A stretch of DNA of 64,000 bases, taken from the IMG/VR virus record IMGVR_UViG_3300045988_181996. The stretch is one strand, 5' to 3'. Position 1 is the first letter of the stretch, and each line of letters starts with the position of its first letter. This stretch comes from a virus. Shown here in pieces: positions 9,853-26,824 of the stretch. A program made the position numbers and the translations under genes. The notes beneath the pieces are model-generated. The model ran no database searches. It worked only from the letters and a program-made list of their open reading frames with translations, and was not told where the DNA came from.

Positions 9853-9969
9853 AAAGAGAAAAATATATTTGAAAATTAATTGCCTATGTTTACTTTAACA
9901 TAAACTATTAAAAAAATCAAGCAAAATCATTAAGCAGTTTAATGACTTACTTAGGTCAGTTTATTTTAA

Positions 9970-11463
9970 TTAATTTTCTGAATTATTTATTTCAGATTCA
10001 ACTTCACCAGTTTGTTCTACAACTTCAATCGTCTCAGCTTGTTTAATTCCACGAGCCATTGCACGTCCTTGAACAGTTCCAGTTAAAGTATCTTGAATTA
10101 GGTTTTGGATATTAAGTCCAAGACCTTTATTAATTTGTTCAGTTGTTGTCATAATATCACCAACTAGTTTAGATGAATTACCCTCACCAAACATAGTGAT
10201 TGAATCAATTCTACTAAGTGGTTCAGCAACTGCACGAGCAATTTCTGGTAATTTATCAAGAACCATTTCAAGCTTACCTGCGTCTTGTAATTTAAGCATT
10301 GCTTCTGCTTTTTTATTTAACCCTTCTGCTTCAGCTTCTAATGTTAATCTAATTCTTTCAGCTTCAGCACGACCTTCTTTTTCAATAGCGATTGCATTTT
10401 GTTCAGCCGCATATCTTTCAGCTTCTGCACGAGCTTTAATTGCATCAGCTTCTTTTTCAGCTTCAAATTTTTCAGCTTCAGCTTGGTTCATTCTTTCAAT
10501 TTTTTCAGCTTCTGCTTGTTGTTGCCTAGCATATTTTTCAGCGTCTGCTTGTTTTTTGATCTCAGCAGAAAGTTTTTCTTCCATTACTTTAACGTTACGG
10601 TTTTGAATTTCCGCTTCTTTTTCAGCTTTAACGATATTAGCTTCAGCAGTTTGTCGTTCAATTTCTTTACGTTGAGCTTGTTGTTCAATTTCATATGAAG
10701 CGTCTGCTTGAGCACGTTTAACCTCAGATGCAGTTTTTAACTGAGCTTTTTTAATCTCAAGTTCATTGTTTCGTTGTGCAATTTCTAAATCCGCATCAAC
10801 ACGAGCATCATTAGCAATTTTACTACTTTTAGCTTCTTGTTCAGCTACTTCTTGAAGTGCAATAGCTTTAGCAATAGCAGCATCTTTTCTAATTCTTTCA
10901 GTGTTATCGATACCTAAGTTTTTAATAACATCGTTTTTATCGATAACATTTTGAATGTTAAATGCAACTATTTCTAATCCCATTTCTTCTAAATCTTTGG
11001 TAGCATTTTCTTGAACTTGTGTTGAAAAAGTTACTTTATCTTGAACAATTTCTTTAATATCCATTCGACCAATAATAGCACGAAGGTGTCCTTCTAATGT
11101 ATCACGAACTTCATTTGAAATTTGTTCAGGATCTTTATATAAAAAGTTACGAATAGCTGATTTAAATAACTCAGGTCTTTCAACTCCGATTCTAACTTTA
11201 ATAGCAGCATCAACTTTAACTTCAATAAAGTCTTTTGTAGTAACAAAATCAGTTGTTTTAGCATCAATTGAAATCATTTCTGCTGTCATTGTATCAACTC
11301 GTTCTAAAATTGGTATTTTCCAACCTGTTCTACCATGTAATACCCTTTGTTTTCTCCATCCAGAAATAACCTTAATCTCACGTGGAGACGCAGAAACAAA
11401 ACCTGTTAGAAAAAGTAAACCAGCAAGGATTACTCCTAATAAAATTAAAATAATAGTAACCAT
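9970..11463 (-). CDS. flotillin-like SPFH/band-7 protein with Ala/Glu-rich coiled-coil repeats, 497 aa
   Basis: N-terminal TM helix. SPFH core. Long 'AEAEK' heptad-like repeat region. Length and layout like B. subtilis FloT/YuaG. Confidence 0.8.
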   Translation of the reverse strand: MVTIILILLGVILAGLLFLTGFVSASPREIKVISGWRKQRVLHGRTGWKIPILERVDTMTAEMISIDAKTTDFVTTKDFIEVKVDAAIKVRIGVERPELFKSAIRNFLYKDPEQISNEVRDTLEGHLRAIIGRMDIKEIVQDKVTFSTQVQENATKDLEEMGLEIVAFNIQNVIDKNDVIKNLGIDNTERIRKDAAIAKAIALQEVAEQEAKSSKIANDARVDADLEIAQRNNELEIKKAQLKTASEVKRAQADASYEIEQQAQRKEIERQTAEANIVKAEKEAEIQNRNVKVMEEKLSAEIKKQADAEKYARQQQAEAEKIERMNQAEAEKFEAEKEADAIKARAEAERYAAEQNAIAIEKEGRAEAERIRLTLEAEAEGLNKKAEAMLKLQDAGKLEMVLDKLPEIARAVAEPLSRIDSITMFGEGNSSKLVGDIMTTTEQINKGLGLNIQNLIQDTLTGTVQGRAMARGIKQAETIEVVEQTGEVESEINNSEN

Positions 11464-11547
11464 AATTAAAAATTCCTTTCTTTTTTTAAATTTTCATTAT
11501 ACATGTTTTAAGCAGTTTTATGACGTGCTTAGGTCAATTAATATTAA

Positions 11548-11814
11548 TTAAACCTTCAAATTAATTGATTCTAAAAATTCATAATCTTCTTTACTTAATT
11601 TAATTACTTCACCATTATCATTAACTAATGTCGCATTTTCATAAAAAGAATCATATTCTAATTTAAAAATTTGAGGTTTATATTTACTTATATTTTCATT
11701 TACATATTTATATTCTTTTGGAAGTTTATCAATTACAACTGCTACATAAAACATACTCAAATGTGTATATTTTATGATCCTATCATTAAATTTTTGAAAT
11801 TCTTTCTGCTTCAA
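11548..11814 (-). CDS. hypothetical 88-aa protein upstream of flotillin (possible short NfeD-like partner)
   Basis: Position immediately 5' of the SPFH gene. Weak similarity only. Confidence 0.35.
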   Translation of the reverse strand: MKQKEFQKFNDRIIKYTHLSMFYVAVVIDKLPKEYKYVNENISKYKPQIFKLEYDSFYENATLVNDNGEVIKLSKEDYEFLESINLKV

Positions 11815-11923
11815 CCCGTCTGATTTTGTCGTAAAAATGAATAATCATCATTACTGACTACTTTCATTTGATGTGACGATCCACAGACTTAACTTTCCGT
11901 ATAACCCACGGTAGTGACAATAT

Positions 11924-13102
11924 TTATACTGTAGTCAAAACAGTGTAGTTTTGACATTGTTCTAAGTTTAGAGATGCGTTTATATCTCGGTCGTGAACAA
12001 CGCTACATTTTGGACATGTCCAAGTACGTTCTTTTAATTTTAACTCTGTGTTTTTATACCCACAACAAGAACATAACTTGCTAGAAGGGTAGAAACGTGG
12101 AGCTAAACGTAGTTCAATCCCTAGTTTTTCACATTGGTTAGTTAAGAACAATCTTGACATATACCATTGTGCATTGGAAATTGTTTTAGATAAATGTTTA
12201 TTTTTCATTAGACTTTTTATATTCAAGTCTTCAATAGTTATAAAACTTGGTTTTTGTTTCATAATTGATTGTAGAGCTTTTTGATTATAATCAGTTCTAA
12301 TTCTTGTTATTCTTTCATAAAGTTTATTAACAAGTCTTTGATTTTTATTTAAATTTTTACATTCTCTCAAAGGGCGATTCCAATTAAAACTTTTTAATTG
12401 TCCTTTTTTCTTTCCTGTCTTGTAATAAACTTTATTAATCATGTTGTGTTCATATTTACGTGACAATGCACGTTGTTTTTGTTTTAACTTTTTCTCAAGT
12501 TTTATAACTCGTTTTGATTTGTTAATAGACGGTATCGTTTCATTTTTTGTAATGAATTGGTTTTTTATTCCAAAATCAATACCTATACCATGTGTAGAGG
12601 TAACGGTTTGTTTGATATTCACTTCATCAGTTAAACAAGAAACAAAGTAACGTCCATTTTTCATAGAAACAGTGACAGATTTAACATTATTCGGTATATA
12701 ACCAAATTCTTTTAATCGAACCCATTTTAGTTTAGGTAAAAAAATACGATGTCTTTCAACTTTTATTGTACCAATTAAATAGAAACTATTATTTTTTGAT
12801 TTCTTTTTAAAATTTGGTTTTCCTTTTTTACCATTTAAATAATCCCACATTGCTTTATGACCGTTCATTATTGCTTGTTTTATAGCTTTACTAGGTGACT
12901 TAATTAACCAATCAGGTCTATTTGGATCGTTATTTATCATCTTTGAATAATCATATCCTGAGATAATAGGTTGATTATTTTCTAAACGTTTAAAATTATA
13001 ACTGATAAATTGATTATAAATGTATCTAGTATTACCAAACGTTTGATGTATTAAATTAATTTGTTCTTTATTGGGTTTGATTTCTGTCTTGTAAGCTTTC
13101 AT
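11924..13102 (-). CDS. tnpB: second, divergent IS200/IS605-family TnpB, 392 aa
   Basis: 'RFYPSSKLCSCCGYKNTELKLKERTWTCPKCSVVHDRDINASLNL' zinc finger. 'ITIEDLNIKSLMKNKHLSK' RuvC-II-like. No tnpA. Confidence 0.85.
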   Translation of the reverse strand: MKAYKTEIKPNKEQINLIHQTFGNTRYIYNQFISYNFKRLENNQPIISGYDYSKMINNDPNRPDWLIKSPSKAIKQAIMNGHKAMWDYLNGKKGKPNFKKKSKNNSFYLIGTIKVERHRIFLPKLKWVRLKEFGYIPNNVKSVTVSMKNGRYFVSCLTDEVNIKQTVTSTHGIGIDFGIKNQFITKNETIPSINKSKRVIKLEKKLKQKQRALSRKYEHNMINKVYYKTGKKKGQLKSFNWNRPLRECKNLNKNQRLVNKLYERITRIRTDYNQKALQSIMKQKPSFITIEDLNIKSLMKNKHLSKTISNAQWYMSRLFLTNQCEKLGIELRLAPRFYPSSKLCSCCGYKNTELKLKERTWTCPKCSVVHDRDINASLNLEQCQNYTVLTTV

Positions 13103-13184
13103 TTAAATAACTGTCCTTTTTGTGTGTTTCTAATTACATATTAACATGTATTAATATATTTGTTAATAAAAATGTTAACTGTTT

Positions 13185-13778
13185 CTATTCTCTTAATTTT
13201 TTATTTTCATCTTTTAATTTATTATAGTTATCTTTAAGTTTTGTATTCTCACTTTGTAATTTACTATAATCTTCTTTTAATTTAATATTTTCATCTGTTA
13301 GTTTTTTTGAATCATCTTTTAAAGTATCTAATTTTTTTGTGTATTCATCAACAATTGTTTTTGTTTCTTTATCTAACTTTTCTTTATACTCTTTTTCAAG
13401 TTCTTCTTTAGCTTCTTTTTTCGAATTTTCTAATTCTTCTTTTTGTGCTTGTTTTTGTTTTTCTTCCATTTCTTTTTGTTTTTGTCGTCTTGTTTCAATT
13501 GTTTCTTTAGTTAATTCATTCTTACGATCTAATTCTTCTTGAGATAATCGTTTTTGTTCAATAGCATGTTGTTTTGCTAATTTTGTATTTTGCATATATT
13601 GCCCTATAATAACTCCAAAGGTTGTAACAGCAAATACAGAAACAATAATTATTTTCCATCTTTTTTTTCTAGCATCTTTTTCACGTTTTTTTATAAAATT
13701 TTCATCTGAATCATCTAAATGATCGTTATAAACATCTTTTAAGTGCTTATTTCTTTTAAATATATCTAAAAAACCCAT
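13185..13778 (-). CDS. membrane-anchored K/E-rich coiled-coil protein, 197 aa
   Basis: Single TM helix 'IIIVSVFAVTTFGVIIG' followed by charged coiled-coil. Confidence 0.5.
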   Translation of the reverse strand: MGFLDIFKRNKHLKDVYNDHLDDSDENFIKKREKDARKKRWKIIIVSVFAVTTFGVIIGQYMQNTKLAKQHAIEQKRLSQEELDRKNELTKETIETRRQKQKEMEEKQKQAQKEELENSKKEAKEELEKEYKEKLDKETKTIVDEYTKKLDTLKDDSKKLTDENIKLKEDYSKLQSENTKLKDNYNKLKDENKKLRE

Positions 13779-13800
13779 TAATCAAAAATTTCCTTTCTGT

Positions 13801-14388
13801 TTAAAATACTCGAACTCCCATTAATGAATCTTCAGTAAAATTACCTACTGCACGGGAGTCTTGACTTACATCTCTATTATCACCTAATACAAAATAATGT
13901 CCTTCTGGTACAATAGTATCAAAATTAACAGTTTTAAATAGATGAATATTATTTTCATCTAAATATTTTTCTTCATATTTTACATTATTTACATATAAAA
14001 CACCGTCTATTACTGTTACTCTATCTCCTGGTAACCCGATTACACGTTTAACAATGTTTTTACTCTCACCACCATCAACTAATCGTTCTTTAAATACTGC
14101 TATATCAAATCTATCCACTCGCTCTTTTTTTAATAACATGTACTCACCATCTTTTAATGTTGGTAACATTGACGGACCGTCTACTTTAACTAATGTAAAA
14201 TTTATTCTAAATAACATTACAATCATGATAATTACTAAAAATACTGTAACATCTTTAACAGGTGAATGTAATTTTTTATGGTTATATATACTAACTTCAC
14301 TTTCATCAACACCCATAGCTTCTGCTAATTCTTTATTACGCTTTTTTAAATATTCATCATCTTTTTTATATCTATCAAAAATACCCAA
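13801..14388 (-). CDS. lepB: type I signal peptidase (SipS/LepB family), 195 aa
   Basis: Boxes 'GPSMLPTL', 'KRVIGLPGDRV', 'YFVLGDNRDVSQDSR' with catalytic Ser/Lys context. Confidence 0.85.
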   Translation of the reverse strand: MGIFDRYKKDDEYLKKRNKELAEAMGVDESEVSIYNHKKLHSPVKDVTVFLVIIMIVMLFRINFTLVKVDGPSMLPTLKDGEYMLLKKERVDRFDIAVFKERLVDGGESKNIVKRVIGLPGDRVTVIDGVLYVNNVKYEEKYLDENNIHLFKTVNFDTIVPEGHYFVLGDNRDVSQDSRAVGNFTEDSLMGVRVF

Positions 14389-14402
14389 AATTTCACCCCT
14401 AA

Positions 14403-14684
14403 CTAATTATCACGGTCATAATTACCAGACAATTCATGATCAATTTTATCTGATAAACGGTTTATTGAACTAACAATATTCATTTGACTTTGTAAAATAG
14501 CATTCATTCTATCTATTACTTCATTTGGTTGTGAATAACTCATATCATAGTCATCTAAATAATTCTTGACAGCTAAATTTACAACATCATTCATAGACAT
14601 CGATTTATCTGTTGCAACACTTAGTAATCTTCTCTTTGTTCTATCAGTTAATCTAATCTGTAAACTTTCAGTTCTTTTTTTCAC
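14403..14684 (-). CDS. ribbon-helix-helix DNA-binding protein, 93 aa
   Basis: 'LQIRLTDRTKRRLLSVATDKSMSMNDVVNLAVKNYL' RHH fold signature. Confidence 0.5.
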   Translation of the reverse strand: MKKRTESLQIRLTDRTKRRLLSVATDKSMSMNDVVNLAVKNYLDDYDMSYSQPNEVIDRMNAILQSQMNIVSSINRLSDKIDHELSGNYDRDN

Positions 14685-14839
14685 TAAATTTCACACTTCT
14701 TTCTTTTATATTTATCACTATTATATCACATCTTTTGTTAATATACAAGTATTTTATTAAAAAATTGACATAAAAAAGAAGTAGTTTAACGACATACTTA
14801 GGTCTGATTTATAATTAATTTTTATTTAAGAGCATTGAA

Positions 14840-15775
14840 TTAAACTTTAGTTCTTTTTTCTTCATCTACTTGTTGTCCACGACCAGTTATAACAGGTGCA
14901 TCACCATAGTAGTTTTTAAGTTCAACTCCACCTGTTTCAACAAAATAGTTACCGTTCCATGTTATATCTGGTTGGTCTTTAGCTTTAAGTACCATTGTAA
15001 ATTGATAAACTTTATCAGTATTACTATCATATACTTTTATTTTATCTATTTTATAACCTAAAACTATCATATTATTTAATGAAGCAACTGAACCACGTTT
15101 TGTAACTGTTAATACATCTTTAATTGAACCTGGTTTAAAATCTCCATTTTTTTCAGCAACTGCATTAAATTGTTTTGTAAGCTCGTCCGTTACAGTTTTA
15201 GTTTCTTTTTCTGGTAAAGGAACATCACTTTTTTCTAAATCTGCTTTAGCTTGTTTTTCAGTATCTTCTTCTTTTGGTTTTTCTTTTTTAACTTCTTCTT
15301 TTGGTTTTTCGTTATTTTCTTCTTTTGGTTTTTCTTCTTGTTTTTGTTCTACTTGTGGTTGATTACCTTGCATTCGTTTTTCCGCTTCTTTTTGAGATGA
15401 TTTCAAAGCGTACACACCCCAAATAATACCAAGAACTATAGCAATAGGAACAATTATTTTAACAATTTTCATCCATTTGTCGATTCCGTTTTGTTTTTGT
15501 ATATCACTACTATTACTATCATCTCCGTTATACATATCATCATATCCGTCAAACTCAGGGTCGTACTCAGGATCAACTTCATCTACATTATAATTATCTT
15601 CTTCATCGTAAGTATCTTTGTCATCATAATCAACATCTTCATCAAATTCTTCTAATTGAGCTTTTTTCTTCTTAACTTTAACAGGAACATTTATATCGAT
15701 ATCCGATAATTTAATTCCTGTTTCTTCATTTGTTTTTTCAACTTCTTTATTTTTCTTACTAAATTTTCCAAACAT
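14840..15775 (-). CDS. membrane protein with acidic N-terminal tail and K/E-rich linker, 311 aa
   Basis: TM 'IVKIIVPIAIVLGIIWGVYAL'. Low-complexity 'EEKPKEE' repeats. Confidence 0.5.
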   Translation of the reverse strand: MFGKFSKKNKEVEKTNEETGIKLSDIDINVPVKVKKKKAQLEEFDEDVDYDDKDTYDEEDNYNVDEVDPEYDPEFDGYDDMYNGDDSNSSDIQKQNGIDKWMKIVKIIVPIAIVLGIIWGVYALKSSQKEAEKRMQGNQPQVEQKQEEKPKEENNEKPKEEVKKEKPKEEDTEKQAKADLEKSDVPLPEKETKTVTDELTKQFNAVAEKNGDFKPGSIKDVLTVTKRGSVASLNNMIVLGYKIDKIKVYDSNTDKVYQFTMVLKAKDQPDITWNGNYFVETGGVELKNYYGDAPVITGRGQQVDEEKRTKV

Positions 15776-15836
15776 TTATTTTCAACCTTTCAAATTATGT
15801 AATTAACTAATTTTAAGACTTAGTTAGGTCTAACAT

Positions 15837-16610
15837 CTAAAAGAAATCATTTAAATTAGCATTTGCTTTTATTTTTTTTAACTGTTTTTCAATTTTCTTA
15901 TCTTTTTGCTTTATCTCATTAATTTTATTTTTCAAATTACTTGAATGAATCTCTACATCACTTAAATTAACGGATTTAGCAGTTTTCTTTGTCGATGTTT
16001 GTTTTTCTTGTTTTTCTTCTACATCTTTTTTTTGTGGTTTTTTCTTAACAGTTTTTTCAGTATTCGTTGTTGAAACCACTTCGTTTGATTTTTTAGACTG
16101 CTTTTTAGCTGTTGTCTTCTTTGGTTTTTCTTCTTTTTTTACCGTTTCTTTTTTCTCAGTTGTTTCGCTAATTTTACCAAATTCATTATCGATTTTAATT
16201 TTTATTTTTATTAAATGTGCCAAGGCTATATTTGCATTCTCACTTTGATTTAATATTAACTTAAAAATTTCAGAATGTGTTAATTTTTTACGTACAGTAG
16301 AATCATTAATATAATTAATAATTTCATCAGGTATTCCTTTAAAACGATACGAAAATGGTTTATCTATTTCTATATAATTAAAATTATCAGAATAACTATT
16401 ATAAAGTGCAATTGTTTGATTAATTGTTAAACCATATGTTGTACCTGTATTATATAGTAATTTTAACACATCACAATAAAATGAACTCAATCCATAACGA
16501 CAACTTTTCTTTAGTTGATCAATTTGACCAAATTTCGTATTTATATTATAATATAATGTTTTGTTCATTATAAAGATCCTTTCTTTTTTACTATGTTCAT
16601 ATTTTAACAT
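15837..16610 (-). CDS. putative plasmid replication initiator (basic C-terminus) adjacent to iterons, 257 aa (true start may be Met15, 16568)
   Basis: Gene start abuts the 13-bp iteron array. Lys-rich DNA-binding tail. No family motif recognised, so the call is by context only. Confidence 0.4.
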   Translation of the reverse strand: MLKYEHSKKERIFIMNKTLYYNINTKFGQIDQLKKSCRYGLSSFYCDVLKLLYNTGTTYGLTINQTIALYNSYSDNFNYIEIDKPFSYRFKGIPDEIINYINDSTVRKKLTHSEIFKLILNQSENANIALAHLIKIKIKIDNEFGKISETTEKKETVKKEEKPKKTTAKKQSKKSNEVVSTTNTEKTVKKKPQKKDVEEKQEKQTSTKKTAKSVNLSDVEIHSSNLKNKINEIKQKDKKIEKQLKKIKANANLNDFF

Positions 16611-16644
16611 CTTCTTTCAAAGAAGTCAAGTAATATATTATAAT

Positions 16645-16962
16645 TTGTTACCCTTAGTTGTTCTCCCTAGTTGTTACTCTTAGTTGTTCTCCTTAGTTGT
16701 TACTCTTAGTTGTTCTCCTTAGTTGTTACCCTTAGTTGTTACCCTTAGTTGTTACCCTTAGTTGTTACCCTTAGTTGTTCTCCTTAGTTGTTCTACTTAG
16801 TTGTTCTCACTAGTTGTTCTCCCTAGTTGTTCTACTTAGTTGTTCTACTTAGTTGTTCTCACTAATTGTTCTCCCTAGTTGTTCTCACTAGTTGTTCTAC
16901 TTAGTTGTTCTCACTAGTTGTTCTCCCTAGTTGTTCTCACTAGTTGTTACCCTTAGTTGTTA
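16645..16962. repeat. iteron array 1: ~24 tandem copies of a 13-bp unit YTAGTTGTTMYYC
   Basis: Read directly from the sequence. No unique spacers between units, so not CRISPR. Confidence 0.9.
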
Positions 16963-17071
16963 CAAAAAATACAAAAAAGATACAAAAATACAACACAAAA
17001 TCATTGACATTTATACATCACAATGATACACTAGATATATCGATAAAAAAAAGAAAGGAATAGACTAGAGC

Positions 17072-18073: not shown

Positions 18074-18210
18074 TAATAAAAAGTACTACAAACACACTTG
18101 TAGTACTCTTTTTTTATATTAAAAAAGTCTCCAGAAAAACTCGTCTGTATTAATTTTTCGTGGTATCTTAGTCTCCACAAAAACTTATCCGAAGAATTTT
18201 ATCAAATTTT

Positions 18211-18320
18211 TTACCTGTGGTATTTTATATAAAAAATTACTACCTACGGTATTTTATTTAAAAATTTATTACATCACGTATTTTATTCAAAAAAATAACC
18301 TACAAATGTATTTTCATCAT
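18211..18320. repeat. four ~26-bp direct repeats ACCTRYGGTATTTTATWTAAAAAWTT
   Basis: Seen in sequence, in the non-coding 18.1-19.25 kb region. Confidence 0.7.
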
Positions 18321-18429: not shown

Positions 18430-18542
18430 TCGCTTAGAATATTATCATTCTAGGATTTACTTAATCAGTATTTAATATTATTATTCTAGGTAATATCTAA
18501 CTATCTAAGAATATTACCCTTCTAGGTAATACTTAATTAGGA
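18430..18542. repeat. three ~35-bp direct repeats (..AATATTAYYCTTCTAGGTAATACTTAA..)
   Basis: Seen in sequence. Confidence 0.7.
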
Positions 18543-19155
18543 AAAAATATACTGTACTATTTTTTACTCAAATCGCAAGGAATGTTGCTTCCTTATTTCA
18601 ATTTCTAATTAAGTAGAAATTATAAAACCCTATTAAAAACTTGAAGCGGCAAGATCATCAAAAAAAAAATAAAAAGATAAAAACATTTAAAAAAAATAAT
18701 GACTTAATATATCAAAAAATCTCCTGTTATTAAAATTTACCGATGCAATTTTATTAATTCGATCTTTTAAGTGAACCCCTACCTTTAAAATTCTCACAAC
18801 TAAATTTACCTTTAAAATAACTAATTAAAACATCATCAAAATAACATTTTAGCAAACTCCCTCACAAAAAAAATACAACTAAATAAAAAAATTCCATTCA
18901 AATAAAATTTTTAAGACGCATTTAAACACCCTTCTCGCTTTGATGAAATACTTTCTGGTATAATTGGTCCAAAAAATATTTTACGACGATTCTAGGGGTA
19001 TAGAAATAGCTCCTAGAGGGTGATTCATTATTTTTGTATATAGTATATTTCGGATAATGACATTTTAACAAAATTATTTAATAAACGTCTACATTTGTCG
19101 TTATCTATTTAACCTTCTTATCCTAATTGGTAATAATATATTTATCGCTGCAAAA

Positions 19156-19210
19156 CGTAATTCTACGAATTACTTAAAAATAAGTTAGGCATAGCCTAAA
19201 ACCCTTTAAC
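19156..19210 (+). promoter_or_regulatory. hairpin motif copy 1: CGTAATTCTACGAATTAC + TTAGGCATAGCCTAA + ACCCTTTAAC upstream of the 19252 gene
   Basis: Two palindromes plus a conserved ACCCTTTAA box. Recurs five times before plus-strand genes. Confidence 0.6.
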
Positions 19211-19251
19211 TCGAAAATATTAATTAAATAAATGTTTGGAGGGTTACCGCT

Positions 19252-21068: not shown

Positions 21069-21096
21069 ACTTAACTCTTAATCTTTCGCTTATAAT

Positions 21097-21151
21097 CGTA
21101 ATTCTACGAATTACTCAAAAACCAATTAGGCTTCGCCTAATACCCCTTAAC
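21097..21151 (+). promoter_or_regulatory. hairpin motif copy 2: CGTAATTCTACGAATTAC + TTAGGCTTCGCCTAA + TACCCCTTAAC
   Basis: Near-identical to copy 1. Confidence 0.6.
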
Positions 21152-21187
21152 TTTTGAAATTTATTTTATTAATTGGAGGTTTTATAC

Positions 21188-22949: not shown

Positions 22950-23020
22950 TTAACTTGCACCCGCTAATACATACGTATTAGCTGGAAAACCAGTTAAGTT
23001 GCACCTAATACCCTTTAATC
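22950..23020 (+). promoter_or_regulatory. hairpin motif copy 3: TTAACTTGCACC ... GCTAATACATACGTATTAGC ... GTTAAGTTGCACC + TAATACCCTTTAATC
   Basis: 20-bp perfect palindrome flanked by 12-bp direct repeats, then the ACCCTTTAA box. Confidence 0.55.
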
Positions 23021-23057
23021 TATGAAAAAAAATTAAAACAAATTAAGGAGTCATATC

Positions 23058-23201: not shown

Positions 23202-23243
23202 AAAAAAAATATTAATTGATCTAAGTATTACATACTTATCATT

Positions 23244-23272
23244 TAGTTAGGTCACCCTAACACCCTTTAATC
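23244..23272 (+). promoter_or_regulatory. hairpin motif copy 4: TTAGTTAGGTCACCCTAA + CACCCTTTAATC
   Basis: Motif family, upstream of ssb1. Confidence 0.5.
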
Positions 23273-23310
23273 TAAAAAAAATAATAATCAAATAAAGAGA
23301 GGTTCTATTT

Positions 23311-24506: not shown

Positions 24507-24619
24507 CAAATTTTTCCTACCCTGAAAAAATCCCTTGTGTTTAATCCTTGACCTGAATACGTCTTTAAACTGTTCAATTTTTATTACGTGACAATTATAC
24601 TAATTGTCATAAAAACCAA

Positions 24620-24645
24620 TTAGGCTTTGCCTAACACCCTTTTAA
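24620..24645 (+). promoter_or_regulatory. hairpin motif copy 5: TTAGGCTTTGCCTAA + CACCCTTTTA, preceded by TTGACCTGAATACGTC box at 24549
   Basis: Motif family. TTGACCTGARTAYGTC is also present at 25611. Confidence 0.55.
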
Positions 24646-24685
24646 TTATGAAAAAATAAAAAAAATAAAGTGAGGTACAAAACTT

Positions 24686-25105: not shown

Positions 25106-25286
25106 TAAATAATCTCTTAACAGTACTTAGACTGAGCTCTTACGCTTAGTCTTTGTACTGCACTTTGCTTGTGTGGGTTACTGTGATTTGCACAAGTTGG
25201 TTCAACTCCAACTACAAGCCAATCCTCCTCCTAATGAGGACTATTAACCAAATTAACTTTAACATTAAAAAAAGGTGGACAATTAT

Positions 25287-25598: not shown

Positions 25599-25687
25599 TA
25601 AAAAAAAAACATTGACCTGAGTATGTCATTAAAAGACTTAAAATATAAAATAATAAATTAAAATATTAAGAAAAGAGGTATATATTT

Positions 25688-26036: not shown

Positions 26037-26233
26037 ACGGAAATCCTACGTATTTCCTACGGTGGTGACATGGCTTCGCATTAATGTCACGCTTAAAAAA
26101 AACAGTTACCCTTATCTTATTTATTTAATGGTGTAACTGTTTTTTTTATTTGTACAATTAACTCCGTTAATTGTTTTATTAAATTGCAATAGCCTACGCC
26201 TATTGCTATTATTTAAAATAATTATTCAAATTT

Positions 26234-26472
26234 GTTACCCTTAGTTGTTCTCCCTAGTTGTTACCACCAGTTGTTACCCTTAGTTGTTACCACTAGTTGT
26301 TACCACTAGTTGTTCTCCCTAGTTGTTCCCCCTAATTGTCACTCTTAGTTGTTCTCCCTAGTTGTTCCCCCTAATTGTTACTACTAGTTGTTACTACTAG
26401 TTGTTACCCTTAGTTGTTACCACTAGTTGTTACTACTAGTTGTTACCCTTAGTTGTTACCACTAGTTGTTAC
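26234..26472. repeat. iteron array 2: ~18 tandem copies of the same 13-bp YTAGTTGTTMYYC unit as array 1
   Basis: Seen in sequence. Same orientation as array 1, 9.3 kb away. Confidence 0.9.
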
Positions 26473-26564
26473 TTCACTTTGCTTTACCTATTAAAAAACT
26501 ATATTTGATTAAAAATATTTCGATCTCGATACCAAAATATACTTTATTATTAACATTAACTATA

Positions 26565-26690
26565 TCTCTTATATAAATCAATTATATTAATCTCTTATAT
26601 AAACACATTATATAAACACCTTATATAAAAACCTTATATAATCACTATATAAACACCTTATATTAACACCTTATATTAATCAAATTCATA
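26565..26690. repeat. second iteron family: ~9 copies of ~12-bp (C)ACCTTATATAAA(C) preceded by an AT-rich stretch
   Basis: Seen in sequence. Confidence 0.8.
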
Positions 26691-26824
26691 AACACCTTTA
26701 AAAAAAACGCAATTCCTACGTAATTGCTTATATTGGTTCGTGGCTTCGCATTAACTCACTTCCTGATTCATTACTTGAATCAGTCTTCGGTCAAACTCGT
26801 CTCAAACTCCTTTGACATAAGGAA

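Follow-up and report, generated by a model that had tools for sequence, protein, structure and literature searches.

The 64,000-nt viral stretch IMGVR_UViG_3300045988_181996 of the IMG/VR collection (the window, hereafter) contains a short, repeated intergenic motif which, judging from the pattern of base changes among its homologs, is the DNA template of a predicted H-type RNA pseudoknot, self-contained in 27 nt, in which the loop of a 4-bp hairpin would pair with the 3' tail. This element, which we call the knot, belongs to a family of pseudoknot RNAs that is very widespread in mobile elements but has no entry in Rfam 15 and no description in the literature that could be searched. An initial annotation of the window had described a conserved motif of ~35 nt at the 3' side of four minus-strand genes; it missed the pseudoknot fold, two copies located on the opposite strand, how widely the element is distributed, and the linkage to a downstream leader in the best-sampled family.

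The repeat reported at the four minus-strand junctions is real by shuffling, by a position matrix, and by a covariance model, but the actual total is six copies and not four. The core GACNTASTTAGGTC lies on the plus strand at 9944, 11522, 14791, and 15817, with 0 to 1 mismatch each, and a fifth near-match sits on the opposite strand; shuffled sequence gave a mean of 0.06 matches, and five or more were obtained in 0 of 100 shuffles. A sixth copy was found with a position matrix built from the known ones, and this matrix and the covariance model agree on exactly six copies in the window (27.5 to 44.9 bits with the latter, the next match having 10 bits). The core of the ~35 nt originally proposed is conserved, but the AT-rich right half (GTTTATTTTAATTAATTTT) is spacer plus stop codon and is unconserved. 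The sequence TTAGGTCA, which had been connected with copy 4 of a separate hairpin motif (23247), has four matches in the window versus 1.9 expected; it is therefore at chance level, and that site belongs to a different repeat. Since the two extra copies, with matches spanning 24545 to 24575 and 25609 to 25639, are on the other strand, within a cluster of plus-strand genes, the motif follows gene orientation: the minus-strand copies (9932, 11510, 14779, and 15805) lie among minus-strand genes and the plus-strand copies (24549 and 25613) among plus-strand genes. All six are fully outside open reading frames (ORFs) in a window that is 86% coding, and six intergenic and sense-oriented placements have a probability of ~5e-8 by chance.

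The sense-strand consensus is n-GAC-CU-GAGCA-n-GUC-n'-UUAAAC-UGCUC, composed of helix S1 (nGAC/GUCn'), loop L1 (CU or CC), helix S2 (GAGCA/UGCUC), a one-base junction, and loop L3 (UUAAAC). A scan of viral contigs with a degenerate pattern limited to the hairpin part returned >120 loci; the 3' segment AAACUGCUY, which was outside the search pattern, is present in nearly all of them, so that these loci are homologs and not chance matches. In 125 distinct sequences, 94.8% of the cells are paired and two-sided changes occur at seven of the nine pairs, values reached by 0 of 500 shuffles, while shifted registers give 26 to 55% pairing. Among the pairs whose 3' partner was unconstrained by the search pattern, pair 5-20 shows all four Watson-Crick types, and pair 11-31 occurs as GC (72), AU (32), and GU (14). 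A structure-based scan recovered S1 flips (GUC/GAC, AUC/GAU, and CUC/GAG) and S2 variants (GGACA/UGUCC, GAACA/UGUUC, and AAACA/UGUUU), with 165 matches in real sequence versus 6 to 8 in reversed or shuffled controls. In a protein-anchored set, chosen only by homology of a phage scaffold protein, 95.1% of the cells are paired with compensation at six of the nine pairs; both interleaved helices of the H-type pseudoknot are compensated in sequences that were not selected for them. The fold also accommodates the six copies of the window, including those with compensated S2 variants.

Considering that wobbles are found on the sense strand only (37 U·G and 14 G·U in the 125 sequences, where the opposite strand would have A·C) and that ~92% of the copies are co-oriented with both neighboring genes, the structure is formed by the transcript. 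Pairing between the upstream and downstream flanks or within them, long-range pairing included, did not exceed that of permuted controls, and the 27 nt are therefore self-contained. The bases C8, C9, A15, G17, and A23 to A25 are invariant and U10 changes to C only, while the junction base is variable (T 78, A 67, C 16, G 4). Minimum-free-energy folding, which is unable to represent pseudoknots, yields weak and nonsignificant hairpins. A nested alternative proposed by RNAfold (S2 plus G17-C26 and U18-A25) was discarded, since A25 remains A when base 18 varies.

No Rfam 15 family matches the motif in the window at the gathering score, in 1.7 kb with two copies at E<=10, or in 40 phage loci at E<=1; the only Rfam matches nearby are RAGATH-18 (the TnpB guide RNA, 11803 to 11887) and GP20-b. 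A literature search by keyword found no description of the element, with most subscription journals outside its scope, and searching by sequence string gave chance matches only. A stricter 26-nt pattern, for which <1 chance occurrence is expected in the whole genome collection, matches at least 120 genomes. Among the matches listed are Streptococcus, Staphylococcus, many Lactobacillaceae, Clostridia, Bacteroidota, Cyanobacteria, Alpha- and Epsilonproteobacteria, Deltaproteobacteria-type metagenome-assembled genomes (MAGs), Chloroflexota, Planctomycetota, Acidobacteriota, several lineages of the candidate phyla radiation, and one DPANN archaeal MAG, and some of the MAG matches may be explained by mis-binned phage contigs. 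The annotated phages carrying the motif include Staphylococcus phietaviruses, Lactobacillus phages, crAss-like phages, and an Anoxybacillus phage; it is also found in a Lactobacillus salivarius megaplasmid (within a prophage remnant), phage-plasmids, a Macrococcoides plasmid, and the sex factor of Lactococcus lactis MG1363. A search of Escherichia coli genomes with one variant gave no match.

By a crude ORF call, 88% of 150 copies are intergenic. Gaps of 0 to 3 nt between the upstream stop codon and the first paired base are never seen (hard minimum of 4 to 5 nt, mode of 5 to 6, median of 15 nt), while the distance from the knot to the next start has a 10th percentile of 16 nt and a median of 60 nt. 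When a stop codon occupies the ribosomal A site, ~12 to 13 nt of downstream mRNA are inside the ribosome; hence, a 5-nt gap puts the knot right at the entrance, and the shortest spacings to a start codon fall at the edge of the initiating ribosome. Together, the minimum at the stop codon and the distances to the start place the knot just outside the footprints of the terminating and the initiating ribosome. It seems likely that compaction presses the knot toward the stop codon and that selection holds it outside the terminating ribosome. Both flanks are G-poor, and the 3' flank is U/A-rich.

The genes downstream of the knot belong to 119 protein clusters, and 57 of 234 code for phage scaffold proteins. 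Among 80 GP20-scaffold loci retrieved by protein homology only, 68 have a knot located 58 to 68 nt upstream of the scaffold start, and the gene preceding the knot comes from 15 unrelated families, with gaps of 4 to 79 nt. With such a fixed spacing downstream and a variable gene and gap upstream, the knot of this family travels with the downstream leader. The GP20 loci devoid of a knot (L317, L324, L288, L314, L316, and L326) have a canonical GC hairpin followed by U6 in its place, directly before the GP20-b leader; since a plain hairpin is able to stand in for the knot, a generic structural role can be argued. When each cluster of downstream proteins is represented by a single locus, a U-tract (at least 5 U in 8 nt) directly follows the knot in 33% of independent contexts versus 3 to 9% of control windows, a value that reaches 95% in GP20 leaders. 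Copies with a U-tract are about as close to the next co-oriented start as the others (25th percentile of 32 versus 28 nt), and the downstream genes must therefore be read through. In five loci a phage tRNA starts 2 to 11 nt past the knot (2 to 4 nt in four), and in another arrangement, found in one locus, a tRNA ends 1 nt before it.

The copies of the window are listed below, together with two features located next to copy 14779; distances past a stop codon are measured to the first paired base, and bits refer to the covariance model.

9932 to 9958, minus strand: pseudoknot copy 1, RNA UGACCUAAGUAAGUCAUUAAACUGCUU, 11 nt past the flotillin stop codon; 44.9 bits
11510 to 11536, minus strand: pseudoknot copy 2, RNA UGACCUAAGCACGUCAUAAAACUGCUU, 11 nt past the stop codon of an 88-aa ORF and 46 nt before the flotillin start; 44.5 bits
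14720 to 14748, minus strand: promoter-like site found by eye (TTGTAT, 17 nt, TG-n-TATAAT), between copy 14779 and a 93-aa ribbon-helix-helix (RHH)-like gene
14772 to 14777, minus strand: U6 tract directly 3' of copy 14779, read from the sequence
14779 to 14805, minus strand: pseudoknot copy 3, RNA AGACCUAAGUAUGUCGUUAAACUACUU, 34 nt past the stop codon of a 311-aa membrane protein gene; 36.8 bits
15805 to 15831, minus strand: pseudoknot copy 4, RNA AGACCUAACUAAGUCUUAAAAUUAGUU, 5 nt past the stop codon of a 257-aa ORF and 29 nt before the 311-aa ORF begins; 27.5 bits
24549 to 24575, plus strand: pseudoknot copy 5, RNA UGACCUGAAUACGUCUUUAAACUGUUC, 42 nt past the stop codon of a 110-aa ORF and 110 nt before an SSB gene; 33.2 bits
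25613 to 25639, plus strand: pseudoknot copy 6, RNA UGACCUGAGUAUGUCAUUAAAAGACUU, 14 nt past the stop codon of a 107-aa ORF and 48 nt before a second SSB-like gene; 38.9 bits

The motif had been said to abut the stop codons, which is accurate for three of the four copies then noted (gaps of 5, 11, and 11 nt) but not for copy 14779 (34 nt). The latter has AAGUA/UACUU as a compensated S2 variant and is directly followed by C-U6-AUGUC; S2 is fully compensated in copy 15805 (AACUA/UAGUU) and includes a U·G wobble in copy 24549 (GAAUA/UGUUC). The -35 element of the promoter-like site matches three of six bases, and the site is not among the stronger ones listed by a consensus scan, in which promoter-like sites of the motif region were not above the shuffled expectation.

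The knots of the window are placed in two divergent operons that adjoin iteron arrays, where they precede the flotillin gene, two SSB genes, and a membrane-protein gene and are also found at two operon-internal unit ends. The leftward operon starts with the 257-aa ORF, a knot, 29 nt, the 311-aa membrane protein, 34 nt, a knot, U6, and the promoter-like site seen by eye; continues with the RHH-like gene, a signal peptidase, a 197-aa ORF, a TnpB insertion, and the 88-aa ORF; and ends with a knot, 46 nt, flotillin, a knot, ~83 nt, and an intrinsic terminator-like site (9849 to 9825). The rightward operon consists of the 110-aa ORF, a knot, a second and unrelated repeated leader element, the SSB gene, the 107-aa ORF, a knot, the SSB-like gene, a terminator, and iterons. 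A metagenome scan with the 311-aa protein retrieved one relative only. The related plasmid L327 (91% protein identity) keeps, in the same place, a copy identical to copy 14779 after the orthologue of the 311-aa protein (called 315 aa there), and a degenerate copy (16 bits) after a 243-aa ORF, the counterpart of the 257-aa ORF, where the window has copy 15805; the copy after flotillin (9932) is kept in both plasmids.

The explanation that we tentatively favor, while giving it somewhat less than an even chance, is that of a barrier: as a compact structure, the knot would set RNA ends at the boundaries between cistrons, and the fates of neighboring cistrons would in this way be uncoupled. It would represent a cis-acting "punctuation" module in the polycistronic transcripts of phages, prophages, and conjugative elements, folding just past the footprint of a ribosome terminating on the upstream ORF. 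Groove triples are probably formed by the invariant loop bases, and this would result in a compact, unwinding-resistant fold able to block enzymes that travel along RNA, such as the 5'-to-3' exonuclease RNase J1, the 5'-end-dependent RNase E, and 3'-to-5' exonucleases; when it is followed by a U-tract, the knot might additionally act on RNA polymerase as the stem of a leaky terminator. The outcome would be an RNA end fixed at the gene boundary, with the stability and expression of the flanking cistrons uncoupled. RNase J1 and RNase E are blocked by 5'-terminal structures (ompA, aprE, and the processed cggR-gapA transcript), and 3' exonucleases are blocked by repetitive extragenic palindromic (REP) elements and terminator hairpins. 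Regarding the direction of the barrier, we lean toward protection of the downstream, highly expressed segment because of the linkage to the scaffold leader (in this best-sampled case the knot heads the scaffold-capsid mRNA leader), the SSB, flotillin, and tRNA contexts, and the known behavior of 5' structures toward RNase J1 and RNase E.

Several observations weigh against a barrier of this kind or against its direction. The near-invariant loop bases, maintained across >10 phyla, are not obviously needed by a simple barrier. Downstream of copy 9932 there are only ~83 nt and then a terminator, 7% of the knots directly follow a canonical terminator, and a knot that ends 2 to 4 nt before a tRNA should hinder the binding of RNase P to the leader. 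The six copies of the window are clustered in 16 kb, and the long conjugation operons hold none according to the covariance model. Finally, L327 has no copy before flotillin, at the equivalent of the 11510 junction, where the place of the TnpB-truncated 88-aa gene is taken by two intact 172-aa genes that lead directly into flotillin; as such differences with the window show, copies are gained and lost junction by junction. According to a published heuristic (PMC5737381), an RNA present in several phyla, with a pseudoknot and several bases conserved at >=97%, usually does something more sophisticated, and because the extreme conservation of unpaired bases is unexplained by a barrier, we keep alive a role as a ribozyme or factor-binding RNA, although as an unlikely one.

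Such a biochemically sophisticated RNA could be a very small self-cleaving ribozyme at gene or tRNA boundaries or an aptamer for a universal small molecule or factor (RNA polymerase, the ribosome, or RNase P). The pseudoknot, the many phyla, and at least eight (nearly) invariant unpaired or junction bases coincide with the criteria for riboswitch- or ribozyme-like RNAs (PMC5737381), but the one-base junction itself is unconserved, and the 119 downstream protein clusters are too diverse for a metabolite riboswitch. The distribution also resembles that of the hammerhead, twister, pistol, and theta ribozymes (in phages and prophages, multicopy, gene-sense, and near tRNAs; PMC10879173, PMC4604425), and the hairpin, loop-to-tail pseudoknot, and A-rich linker are similar to the P1-pseudoknot part of pistol (PMC4604425). 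However, 27 nt is far below the size of any known natural self-cleaving ribozyme, there are no extra helices or flank pairing to hold a cleavage site, the Rfam ribozyme and riboswitch models give no match, and the substitution by a plain GC hairpin in homologous loci argues for a generic structural role. We regard as quite improbable that the knot represents an RNA class not described before, with a catalytic or factor-binding function; it could then be, for example, a "punctuation" ribozyme, the smallest self-cleaving one in nature, or act directly on RNA polymerase, the ribosome, or RNase P, and phages and plasmids across the bacterial domain would cut or reprogram their polycistronic transcripts with it where genes and tRNAs meet. 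An intrinsic terminator or attenuator of the pseudoknot type, in which S2 would form as the 3' strand exits RNA polymerase before the U-tract and the copies without a U-tract would be decayed or nonterminating, is a serious rival too, if one of similarly small probability. The enrichment in U-tracts (33% versus 3 to 9%, and 95% in GP20 leaders), the canonical hairpins with U6 that take the position of the knot, its terminator-like placing right after stop codons and tRNA 3' ends, and copy 14779, with its U6 tract and then a promoter-like site, are all consistent with termination. Yet two-thirds of the independent copies, including four or five of the six in the window, have no U-tract, those with one are equally near the next co-oriented gene, a separate canonical terminator lies downstream of copy 9932, and there are tandem copies as well as copies that end 2 to 4 nt before a tRNA. 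The initial annotation had already stated that the motif is not a canonical terminator, and the fold, a predicted pseudoknot and not a terminator hairpin, agrees with it.

The same annotation had suggested a processing or stability element of the 3' untranslated region (UTR), a REP-like repeat, or a protein-binding site. RNA-level processing or stability is indeed among the best remaining explanations; in the GP20 family, the knot goes with the leader of the downstream gene and not with the 3' end of the upstream one. In its specific form, the knot would be a 3'-end stabilizer of the upstream gene to which 3' exonucleases trim back after a cut by an endonuclease or RNase P, with REP-like protection. 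The tight and lower-bounded gap to the upstream stop codon (mode of 5 to 6 nt), compared with the broad distance to the next start, would suit such a role, even if genome compaction alone could explain the gap; so would the G-poor, U/A-rich 3' flank, the tRNA 5' end (the RNase P site) found 2 to 4 nt past the knot in four loci, and the fact that copy 9932 follows flotillin in both plasmids, while copy 11510 tracks the variant of the 88-aa gene and not flotillin. Against it, the distance between the GP20 knots and the downstream gene is constant, with a variable upstream gene (15 unrelated families) and upstream gap (4 to 79 nt), and typical upstream genes (portal and minor head) need lower expression than the downstream ones. 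It is a serious rival to the barrier, but we give this stabilizer only a small likelihood. A REP-like repeat does not agree with a near nucleotide-level conservation across phages, prophages, and plasmids of many phyla, and a protein-binding site on DNA is contradicted by the covariation of two interleaved helices with G·U wobbles on the sense strand only. More generally, a DNA-level signal is very improbable, whether it were a promoter, an operator bound by a dimeric protein, or a site of recombination or a cassette boundary. GAC-N8-GTC resembles an imperfect palindrome, some copies are flanked by a terminator on one side and the next gene on the other, and one Staphylococcus phage record has a promoter predicted over the motif (by BPROM only), but G·U is tolerated and A·C is not, as expected of an RNA of one strand, the host phyla (plus one archaeal MAG) use different sigma factors, and the phages that carry the motif encode no RNA polymerase of their own. 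A sigma-70 promoter was rejected because TTGACC begins only 25% of the copies and no -10 element is found at a fixed distance, and a palindromic operator was rejected because the second interleaved helix covaries and the wobbles are strand-specific. The least credible of all is a stimulator of recoding (-1 frameshifting or stop readthrough on the upstream ORF), in spite of the compact H-type pseudoknot of a size and spacing similar to those of luteovirus frameshift pseudoknots, which often begins 5 to 8 nt past the last codon of the upstream ORF. Slippery heptamers are found in 9 of 261 copies versus 6 to 10 at control positions, the spacing between stop codon and knot has no 3-nt periodicity, one frame of the knot contains UGA or UAA and, in addition, a second UAA, and copies adjoin tRNAs and follow terminators.

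Compared to known systems, the pistol ribozyme (RF02679) shares with the knot a short hairpin, the loop of which pairs with a strand located downstream, and an A-rich linker (UUAAA) directly after the hairpin, and it is frequent in Firmicutes phages and metagenomes (PMC4604425). However, pistol has helices P2 and P3 and a G-U cleavage site, with the pseudoknot strand between P2 and P3, whereas the tail of the knot pairs right after the 6-nt linker without further helices, and the downstream sequences are unrelated across contexts; the pistol model of Rfam gave no match at E<=10 (1.7 kb, two copies) or E<=1 (40 loci). The theta or minimal ribozymes of gut phages, which are like that of hepatitis delta virus (HDV), are also small, phage-borne, and gene-sense and are located in noncoding gaps, sometimes at tRNA ends (PMC10879173), but their fold is a nested double pseudoknot of at least ~50 nt, with a catalytic C and with the cleavage site at a P1 strand. 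A sequence complementary to UUAAAC, as the HDV-like P1 strand, was absent from the upstream flanks inspected by eye (e.g., L005, L013, and the window copies), and no Rfam HDV family matched. When hammerhead, HDV-like, and pistol ribozymes were mapped by hand, each missed a defining element (CUGAGCA differs from CUGANGA, and CUAAG variants exist). The preQ1-I riboswitch (RF00522) is likewise a minimal pseudoknot of the H type, has ~30 nt, and carries an A-rich tail of the UUAA(C/A) type after P1, but the knot has one variable base at the junction and no conserved C, its S2 does not cover a ribosome-binding site, no que gene is among the leading downstream clusters (119 in total), and there is no Rfam match. 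Luteovirus frameshift pseudoknots such as that of beet western yellows virus (~28 nt) share the 4- to 5-bp S1, the 2-nt L1, the one-base junction, and the A-rich L3 of 6 to 7 nt, and loops of this type are known to form groove triples, but the knot is intergenic, past stop codons, without a slippery site, in DNA phages and plasmids, and near tRNAs.

At the functional level, REP elements and bacterial interspersed mosaic elements (BIMEs), terminator hairpins, and 5'-stabilizer stem-loops (ompA, aprE, and cggR-gapA) are repeated extragenic structures between cotranscribed genes, like the knot, which swaps positionally with a GC hairpin plus U6 and could plausibly set differential expression within operons. 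In contrast to REP elements and BIMEs, the knot is a predicted pseudoknot and not a palindrome, is cross-phylum and not species-specific, is ~92% sense-oriented, and is carried by mobile elements. By analogy, it could also be compared with the exonuclease-resistant RNAs (xrRNAs) of plant viruses, in which a hairpin loop with conserved bases pairs with a downstream strand and which are intergenic and head a stable downstream RNA, but these have ~44 nt or more and form a ring around the 5' end; a literature search found no xrRNAs known in phages. The GP20-a and GP20-b motifs (RF02991 and RF03003) and predicted "csRNAs" (PMC10690425) occupy the same leader upstream of phage scaffold (GP20) genes. 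GP20-b, however, covers two hairpins downstream of the knot or hairpin and excludes the knot, which is also found in >100 unrelated gene contexts.

If these interpretations are correct, the knot would be among the most widespread structured RNAs of the bacterial mobilome, with hundreds of copies at least, and yet missing from the catalogues of RNA families. In the phage head module, it marks the point at which expression must rise from a few copies (portal and minor head) to hundreds (scaffold and capsid), and it could explain how this portal-to-scaffold step is set posttranscriptionally. Synthetic biology could profit from a 27-nt module that works independently of the host and fixes RNA ends or insulates cistrons, and the knot could serve as a simple marker of cistron boundaries in the annotation of phage and plasmid genomes. 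Should the knot prove to be catalytic or to bind a universal factor, a new class of RNA would be added.

Some variants of the knot and its flanks were also recorded. Loci of the Streptococcus mitis group (L129, L151, L155, L170, and ~10 others) have a C·A mismatch in S2, and their knots are directly followed by TTGTTCTTTGAAAA, which resembles the boxA of Gram-positive rRNA operons, and then by a leader of ~250 nt and a 105-aa gene; the boxA-like sequence hints at Nus-factor antitermination in these elements. The resemblance of UGCUC-UUU to a boxA/NusB-E site was rejected for the knot as a whole, since S2 covaries freely (UGUCC, UACUC, and UGUUU) and the true boxA-like sequence is found only in the copies of this group. 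Tandem knots 12 nt apart occur in the crAss-like phage cr124_1 (L125, 1958 to 2026), the first with S1 GAG/CUC and S2 UAGCA/UGCUA and the second ending 4 nt before a tRNA-Val, and there are also tandems in L010 and L068. The extension U6-AUG(U)CAA on the 3' side of copy 14779 (14766 to 14778) is common to many phage scaffold-gene leaders (e.g., L279, ~1131 to 1145), in some of which its AUG is in frame with the scaffold ORF.

The window itself (~27% G+C) is a Gram-positive-type conjugative plasmid or integrative and conjugative element, which encodes a MobL relaxase, a type IV coupling protein, a topoisomerase III-like protein, a SecA2-like ATPase, an antigen I/II-type adhesin, three SSB-like genes, and two TnpB elements. 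The same DNA is present on a 170-kb human-gut metagenome scaffold, and no close relative was found in the plasmid and phage collections searched. The TnpB elements, of the IS605 OrfB type, are located at 11803 to 13180 and 38 to 1276; the RAGATH-18 match mentioned above (69 bits) lies just 3' of the TnpB ORF and corresponds to its guide-RNA scaffold, and the insertion at 11803 to 13180 appears to have cut a 172-aa-type gene, as found in the related plasmid, down to the 88-aa ORF.

Two arrays of ~13-bp iterons (AGTTGTTACC type), at 16532 to 17039 and 26119 to 26500, are 9.3 kb apart and bracket the plus-strand operon, and a third array (26544 to 26708) consists of 11- to 13-bp CTTATATAAACAC repeats; they are probably replication-origin iterons. 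A 48-nt direct repeat (…CCTACG…GGCTTCGCATTAA, 73% identity) at 26037 to 26084 and 26707 to 26754 flanks the iteron block. The second repeated intergenic element, the "hairpin motif" of the initial annotation, has 70 to 95 nt and is found at 19140 to 19234, 21081 to 21175, 22971 to 23038, ~23223 to 23285, and 24597 to 24664, just upstream of five gene starts, two of them of SSB genes. It is formed by the hairpin TTAGGCnnnGCCTAA and then ACCC-TTTAA, has no relation to the pseudoknot, and reads as a terminator-like site on the opposite strand. Between an SSB gene and the next ORF (25108 to 25260), there are ~150 nt of relatively GC-rich noncoding sequence with several possible hairpins and no Rfam match. 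Short noncoding tandem repeats are located downstream of a 333-aa ORF, at 18204 to 18290 (three units of 29 nt) and 18474 to 18545 (two units of 36 nt).

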